21,336 bases of DNA from a virus. The notes under the pieces are model-generated. The model made no database searches. It saw only the letters and a list, made by a program, of their open reading frames with translations, and was not told the DNA's origin. The translations under genes and the position numbers were made by a program. The stretch lies in IMG/VR virus record IMGVR_UViG_3300021185_002806. One strand, written 5' to 3'. Shown one piece after another: positions 5,903 to 6,050 of this stretch; position 1 is the first letter of the stretch, and every line of letters starts with the position of its first letter.

Positions 5903-6015
5903 TAAAAAAGCCCGACACACTGTGCCGGGCTTGATGTTGCTCTCTGTGTGAGAATAATAAAGATGCTCAGTTAGATGAGAGAGGTTGAGAGGAGACACTT
6001 CACATCTTTAATATA
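5903..6015 (-). ncRNA. Candidate small RNA (~110 nt) with a C/U-rich anti-SD loop
   Basis: Bounded by a promoter (6022-6050) and a terminator (5904-5932). Three hairpins and no ORF of note. Confidence 0.6.
5904..5932 (-). terminator. Rho-independent terminator
   Basis: Minus strand AAGCCCGGCAC-AGT-GTGTCGGGCTT followed by a U-tract. One G-U pair works only on the minus strand. Confidence 0.85.
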
Positions 6016-6021
6016 CTTACT

Positions 6022-6050
6022 ATAATAGCAAAAAAAGTAAGTGTTGTCAA
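6022..6050 (-). promoter_or_regulatory. sigma70-type promoter
   Basis: TTGACA (6050-6045), 17 nt, TATTAT (6027-6022), with TG immediately before an extended -10 position. Confidence 0.7.

Follow-up and report, generated by a model that had tools for sequence, protein, structure and literature searches.

A predicted small RNA with a conserved anti-Shine-Dalgarno-like loop in a lineage of marine jumbo phages

Regulatory RNAs of lytic phages are, to our knowledge, barely charted, and the phage small RNAs (sRNAs) that we know to have been characterised derive nearly all from enterobacterial prophages. In phage T4, early messages are shut off at their initiation regions by proteins, RegA acting as a translational repressor and RegB as an endoribonuclease that cleaves Shine-Dalgarno (SD) sequences. 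The occlusion of ribosome-binding sites (RBSs) by C/U-rich sRNA loops is an established mechanism (PMC4615179). The cuckoo RNAs comprise two to four adjacent hairpins, each with CCUCCUCCC in its loop, and their stems vary by compensatory changes while the loop motif alone is conserved (PMC4615179). The c4 antisense RNA of phages P1 and P7 represses a phage gene at the level of translation, through loop sequences that pair around the RBS of that gene (PMC12197685).

The present study concerns a minus-strand unit within a 21,336-nt stretch of viral DNA (IMG/VR record IMGVR_UViG_3300021185_002806; the whole stretch is hereafter the window), for which the original prediction had proposed an sRNA with a loop complementary to the phage's own RBSs. 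Like the cuckoo RNAs of Alphaproteobacteria (CcsR / RSs0680 / SmelC14), it presents a pyrimidine-rich, anti-SD-like loop, and its probable host belongs to the same class. The unit is very probably a genuine and conserved phage sRNA of an undescribed family, and it constitutes a clean, conserved RNA gene in a phage lineage found across many marine metagenomes and metatranscriptomes.

The phage lineage and the sRNA gene

Proteins encoded in the window include SbcC/SbcD-like gp46/gp47, a lysozyme, and an M15 peptidase. Among named phages, the gp46 proteins closest to that of the window come from three jumbo phages, PA5oct, Phosso, and Atu_ph07, with no more than 52% identity, and the close relatives are uncultured marine IMG/VR contigs, including a complete genome with terminal repeats (G004; 342,607 bp, 34.8% G+C). 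The source is a marine jumbo phage, probably infecting an alphaproteobacterium. It is not Bacillus-like, and the relatives that carry the unit form a marine jumbo/T4-like clade.

A 16-mer scan located the sRNA unit on 34 IMG/VR contigs, in 21 distinct variants. It lies 240-1440 nt downstream of gp46 in L001-L017, which are all the relatives whose gp46 is 73-89% identical, and no copy was found less than 6 kb from gp46 in more distant relatives (L018-L080); the nearest record, an 8-kb fragment (G001), is without the sRNA locus. The gene is single-copy per genome, as judged from the complete genome G004 (342.6 kb). Weak model matches located 11.8 kb away in three genomes were evaluated as a second copy and proved to be a gene-end terminator, not a paralog. 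Scanning of G004 and of gp46 relatives without the sRNA revealed no other CU-rich promoter-to-terminator units. Outside this lineage, blastn of the locus against named phage genomes returned no homolog, and none of the 80 16-mer matches listed (of 120 stretches) placed the unit in a cellular genome, the matches being at chance level. Likewise, nothing in the whole window reached the gathering thresholds of Rfam 15, including those of AbcR/ar15, ar14, CcsR, IMES, and marine motifs; the best sub-threshold matches, BSR1350 (29.5 bits versus 216) and RF02278 (27.9 bits versus 50), owed their scores to the terminator and an 8-nt CU stretch.

The exact sRNA stretch occurs in 20 public marine runs, six of which are metatranscriptomes; the runs were searched as contigs only, and thus document presence in RNA libraries and have no bearing on transcription, ends, strand, or level. 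The metatranscriptome contigs break near the terminator, and one run has an uninformative gap over the RNA body.

The anatomy of the gene agrees with the original prediction, which had described a TTGACA-17-TATTAT promoter, a transcript of approximately 110 nt, and a strong terminator, all at exactly the coordinates observed here (6050-5903, minus strand). The -35 hexamer TTGACA occupies 6050-6045 (minus strand), with TTGAC invariant in 13 aligned relatives, and is separated by a 17-nt spacer from an extended -10 element, TGcTATTAT (6030-6022, minus strand; 11 of 12 promoter matches, TG present), whose TG and TAtnnT are invariant across the aligned relatives. On this basis, a host sigma70-type, near-consensus promoter is predicted to drive the gene. 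The predicted sRNA spans 5903-6015 (minus strand, approximately 112 nt), its 5' end being placed about 7 nt past the -10 and its 3' end in the U-run, and the covariance model matches the window at 5904-6012 with 115 bits. The intrinsic terminator (5903-5932, minus strand; stem 5932-5908), the strongest found in the window, consists of an 11-bp stem with seven G-C pairs, an AGU loop, and U6, and its sequence varies from lineage to lineage.

Other elements overlap the promoter region. A plus-strand promoter-like sequence, TTCACA-16-TATAAT (5999-6026, 11 of 12 matches), lies back-to-back over the sRNA promoter and would read antisense into a 58-aa gene, while the complement of the stem-loop start (GATGTCAAGTG) yields TTGACA in several relatives, without a good -10. 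Directly past the stop of the 58-aa gene, a weak 7-bp hairpin, A7-GTGTTGACAACAC-T7 (6028-6058, minus strand), can form between an A-run and a T-run, with the -35 in its loop; it is absent from L001 and L007 and is therefore probably incidental.

Predicted structure and the conserved loop

The sRNA folds at -34 kcal/mol (z = -5.0), a stability unmatched by any of 200 shuffles. Three parts make up the molecule, namely a 5' hairpin (hairpin 1), a small hairpin 2, and the terminator, and per-sequence folding returned the same fold for all 21 variants. Hairpin 1 (5958-6014, minus strand), found in the MFE fold of every variant, has a large loop and up to 12 stem pairs; its core is the 8-bp stem of the original prediction, confirmed as UAAAGAUG (6010-6003) with CAUCUUUA (5965-5958). 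Hairpin 2 (5953-5941, minus strand), UCUC-ACACA-GAGA, was delimited by fold and alignment and carries a conserved ACACAGAG motif that is retained in most variants and shortened or altered in six, with the surrounding pairing shifting between lineages.

Covariation was evaluated with a hand-annotated covariance model, RNAalifold on the raw MAFFT alignment having returned no structure, with the 3' arms misaligned. In the alignment built with this model, pairing extends to 94% of cells, and both sides have changed in 14 of the 20 pairs; fitting to the model favours the structure, with which the independent per-sequence folds concur. None of 500 shuffles was as good, and sliding the partners left approximately 40% of cells paired. 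Compensatory double changes affect 8 of the 12 pairs in the hairpin 1 stem (about 90% of cells paired) and 6 of the 8 modelled pairs in the terminator (99% of cells paired). Whatever the function of the sRNA, this alignment and its structure would suffice as the seed of a new RNA family.

The loop core of hairpin 1, GUGUCUCCUCUCAACCUCUCUCA (5998-5976, minus strand; 23 nt), contains two CCUCUC repeats and is the proposed seed. It is organised as two tandem CCUCUC(UC)A(A/U) units, each similar to the 16S anti-SD core, and its predicted mean unpaired probability is 0.80-0.91. The loop, on whose conservation in relatives the original prediction depended, is conserved among the 21 variants: it is identical in 17, and three more (L011, L012, and L118) differ by an added UC alone, which gives rise to an exact 10-nt tandem duplication (CCUCUCUCAA twice). 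The sole otherwise divergent loop, that of L017, retains UUCUCUCUAAC.

Complementarity to ribosome-binding sites and alternative readings

The loop, conserved and predicted to be unpaired, is also complementary to several SDs. Three pairings with RBSs that had been named beforehand (9/9, 9/9, and 7/7) are all exact. The RBS of gp46 (SbcC-like), GAGAGAGGU (8316-8324, minus strand), lies 6 nt before a TTG start and pairs 9/9 with ACCUCUCUC, giving a loop-only duplex of -16.9 kcal/mol. The RBS AGAGAGGUU of a 115-aa early gene (20757-20765, minus strand) pairs 9/9 with AACCUCUCU; among the homologs of this gene, that of L381 has GAGAGAGGTT, with 10 matching nt, and that of G004 has 7 nt. The third candidate is the RBS AGAGAGG of a 117-aa early gene (21174-21180, minus strand; 7/7). 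Perfect 9-bp loop/RBS duplexes reach about -15 to -17 kcal/mol, as calculated from the loop alone, because pairing between loop and target is a pseudoknot for the cofolding algorithm and invalidates its use on the whole sRNA and target. AGAGAGG has four copies in the window versus 1.27 expected, one antisense to the sRNA and the other three being the RBSs at 8317-8323, 20759-20765, and 21174-21180.

The gp46 RBS together with its TTG start was found at each of the 14 loci examined that bear the sRNA, but at none of the 32 examined in remoter relatives, where the sRNA is missing near gp46; phylogeny and the overlap with the end of the upstream ORF both confound this co-occurrence. The sRNA-bearing relatives keep GCAAGAGAG(AG)GGUA and TTG, whereas the remoter ones have ATG and other upstream sequences. 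In L017 the loop has lost the ACC of the second repeat, and with it two pairs, while the gp46 RBS is unchanged. The AG-repeat of this RBS varies in length (AGAGAGAGG versus AGAGAGG; 8307-8330, minus strand), which moves the stop of an overlapping 198-aa ORF.

Genome-wide complementarity was assessed in G004, in which a simple caller of our own identified 419 genes. The main SD class is AAGGAG(A); a second class consists of GA repeats, (GA)n, and GAGAG was counted in 39 genes and AGAGAG in 19. Loop matches of at least 7 nt occur in 30 of the 419 initiation regions versus 1 of 376 intragenic windows. Nevertheless, 1000 composition-preserving shuffles of the loop yielded p values of 0.06, 0.11, 0.05, and 0.32 for matches of at least 6, 7, 8, and 9 nt, respectively; shuffled loops being nearly as good, the complementarity mostly reflects CU-richness, and single 9/9 matches are not significant alone. 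The specificity that the original prediction had attributed to the named genes is thus no better than expected of any CU-rich loop in the shuffled-loop test on G004, and the signal of the loop is CU-richness plus invariance.

The original prediction had proposed to check for enrichment of AGAGAGG RBSs in early genes. Loop matches and (GA)n SDs are enriched at early genes, and AGAGAGG is not in excess genome-wide (20 sites versus 23 for the reversed control). Loop matches of at least 7 nt involve 9 of 39 genes (23%) proximal to early, sigma70-type promoters versus 21 of 379 others (5.5%), an enrichment (odds ratio 5.1, p = 7e-4) that is not made of independent events, since the early cassettes are paralogous. 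(GA)n SDs are likewise commoner just downstream of sigma70-type promoters (28% versus 11%, p = 0.005). The GANTC promoter cassette is present in 17 copies in G004, about 11 of which have a (GA)n SD, many exactly AGAGAGG, the remaining leader being variable; 4-5 of the 17 (L268, L270, L271, L272, and L280) are leaderless or near-leaderless, with ATG 8-9 nt past the -10.

The longest single match in G004, 11 nt, belongs to a 121-aa gene and extends over 8 nt in the closest relative; homologs are confined to very close relatives, with matches of 12, 11, or 8 nt, and the case is therefore not decisive. The initiation region of this gene (L298:18205-18233; G004 218205-218233) can form a hairpin, AGUGUG-AAGAGGAGA-CACACU, with the SD in its loop, and is perfectly complementary over 11-12 nt to the 5' part of the sRNA loop (GUGUCUCCUCU), or over 8 nt in G002. 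Elsewhere (L285:280-345; G004 195780-195845), a late-type GATAAATA box precedes the leader UUUUGAGAGAGAAUUCAC-AUG of a 574-aa gene, which has 8 contiguous nt complementary to the loop (UGAGAGAG) and matches the CCUCUCUCAA unit of L011-type variants at 9 of 10 positions; late genes can thus carry the motif too. GA-repeat RBSs (GACAGAGAGAGACAG and ACAGAGAGAGAUG) also precede homologs of the 115-aa gene in L392 and L407, which come from marine phage groups that are unrelated and use different types of promoter, so that (GA)n SDs may be a wider habit of the phages of these hosts.

With confidence that is roughly evenly balanced, we infer a trans-acting anti-SD sRNA, with gp46 and the early messages of the phage as the likeliest candidate targets. 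Host sigma70 RNA polymerase would transcribe it early and stop at the intrinsic terminator after approximately 112 nt, and the 5' hairpin would expose the 23-nt pyrimidine-rich stretch in an open loop. This loop could then pair in vivo with purine-rich SD regions (GAGAGG, AGAGAGGU, AGGAGA) of mRNAs, with the best matches in short-leader early messages and gp46. Such pairing would occlude the 30S binding site and lower translation as the sRNA accumulates, as an RNA counterpart of the early shut-off by T4 RegA/RegB, and host mRNAs with similar SDs might be hit as well. A more specific version, in which the sRNA is the early-to-late translational switch of a lytic jumbo phage and a two-site anti-SD mimic titrating the GA-repeat RBSs of GANTC-cassette early messages and gp46, is put forward tentatively and with more doubt than conviction. 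AGAGAGG can itself pair with the 16S 3' tail, CCUUUCU, via one G-U pair; it could be retained simply as a good SD, which would count against the anti-SD sRNA. No phage Hfq was found. If the proposal is true, it offers an RNA-based route to the temporal control of phage translation, and the combination of a seed and an SD class would provide a defined handle on gene expression in uncultured marine phage-host systems.

The same RNA and the same pairing chemistry might instead be directed at host mRNAs, as a tool of host shut-off or reprogramming, the matches to phage RBSs being a by-product of anti-SD composition. The early sigma70 promoter suits a host take-over, the invariance of the loop among phages with 73-89% gp46 identity points to a set of targets that evolves slowly, and the specificity for phage RBSs is no higher than that of shuffled CU-rich loops. 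We consider this unlikely, given that no specific host mRNA can be named and that 20-nt sites with up to 3 mismatches, sought in a sample of 401 alphaproteobacterial genomes, were no commoner than those of the reversed control; moreover, the SD class that matches best is found in early leaders of the phage itself, which would also be hit unless protected.

Rho, through YC dinucleotides, and S1 prefer pyrimidine-rich single strands, and the two exposed pyrimidine repeats could act as a decoy or sponge titrating a C/U-preferring protein, be it Rho, S1, or a phage RNA-binding protein. The invariance of all 23 loop nucleotides goes beyond the needs of a 7-9-nt seed, but 23 nt is short for a full Rho binding site. 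Two tandem loop units, with the exact 10-nt duplication in L011, L012, and L118, and the weak specificity of base pairing would also suit titration, but no partner protein is encoded beside the gene, where flanking genes vary between relatives, and the enrichment of complementary SDs in early leaders would have to be a coincidence. A decoy is decidedly unlikely.

A cis-acting, promoter-proximal leader, either an attenuator or a nut/put-like site governing read-through into the ORFs at 5887-5310, would reduce the short RNA to a mere terminated by-product. In the window, L001, L002, and L007, the next gene begins 15-25 nt past the U-run and lacks its own promoter, so that in the window the ORF at 5887 would be fed by terminator read-through. 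Promoter, structured RNA, terminator, and genes follow one another as in lambda nut and HK022 put, and in one metatranscriptome the contig depth is 22 upstream of the terminator versus 3 downstream, although such depths cannot rank expression. The attenuator leader for the ORFs at 5310-5887, which the original prediction had offered as its alternative, is weakened by variable terminator arms and by downstream promoters in at least five lineages. The arms vary while the loop is invariant, which leaves no conserved antiterminator pairing, and at least five different genes lie downstream of the unit across lineages. Directly past the terminator, the L100 and L017 lineages have a TTGACA-17-TATAAT/TATGAT promoter, and the L084, L011, and L118 lineages a late-type ATAAATA box. 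A nut/put-type antitermination site is at odds with the locus, which lacks a boxA-like GCUCUUUA, is followed by genes that are not conserved and in some cases have their own promoter, is single-copy in a 342.6-kb genome, and matches no Rfam leader or riboswitch. A leader is very unlikely; the invariant promoter, the covarying terminator, the differing flanking genes, and the separate promoters of some downstream genes favour a self-contained unit with predicted transcript ends over the leader of an operon.

Among other identities, a small peptide (the sole AUG runs straight into UGA), type III antitoxin repeats, a CRISPR-repeat mimic, and, the sRNA being pyrimidine-rich, an R-loop origin RNA were dismissed.

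Comparison with known systems

Considered as a trans-acting anti-SD sRNA, the phage RNA shares with the cuckoo RNAs the compensatory changes of the stem (14 of 20 pairs) and the invariance of the loop, but it has one pyrimidine-loop hairpin, and CCUCCUCCC is absent from 21 of 21 variants. In its place, two CCUCUC units occupy a single 21-26-nt loop, in a gene that is phage-encoded and single-copy. AbcR1/2 and other sRNAs with C/U-rich seeds, such as S. aureus RNAIII with its UCCC loops, are alike in the proposed occlusion of RBSs by a C/U seed, in having their own promoter, and in the intrinsic terminator; the phage sRNA differs from them in being without Rfam homology, in a seed of (CU)n type rather than C-run type, and in its proposed phage early targets. 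The Betaproteobacteria toxic sRNA (RF02278) gave the lowest E-value among the sub-threshold matches and is similar in UGUCUCCU plus terminator and in a CU-rich anti-SD, a match of 8 nt and a generic terminator that does not make the phage sRNA a member. Since the defining features of the cuckoo RNAs and of the Rfam families are lacking, it resembles these RNAs in possible action and not in membership.

Among phage systems, T4 RegA and RegB have the same role as that proposed here but are proteins, and their Pfam families had no match in G004, in a search run without a positive control. By analogy, the c4 RNA of P1/P7 is the closest phage RNA in logic. However, c4 belongs to temperate phages and is cut from an operon transcript shared with its single target, ant, whereas the sRNA described here comes from a lytic-type jumbo phage and has its own promoter and terminator, with many proposed targets.
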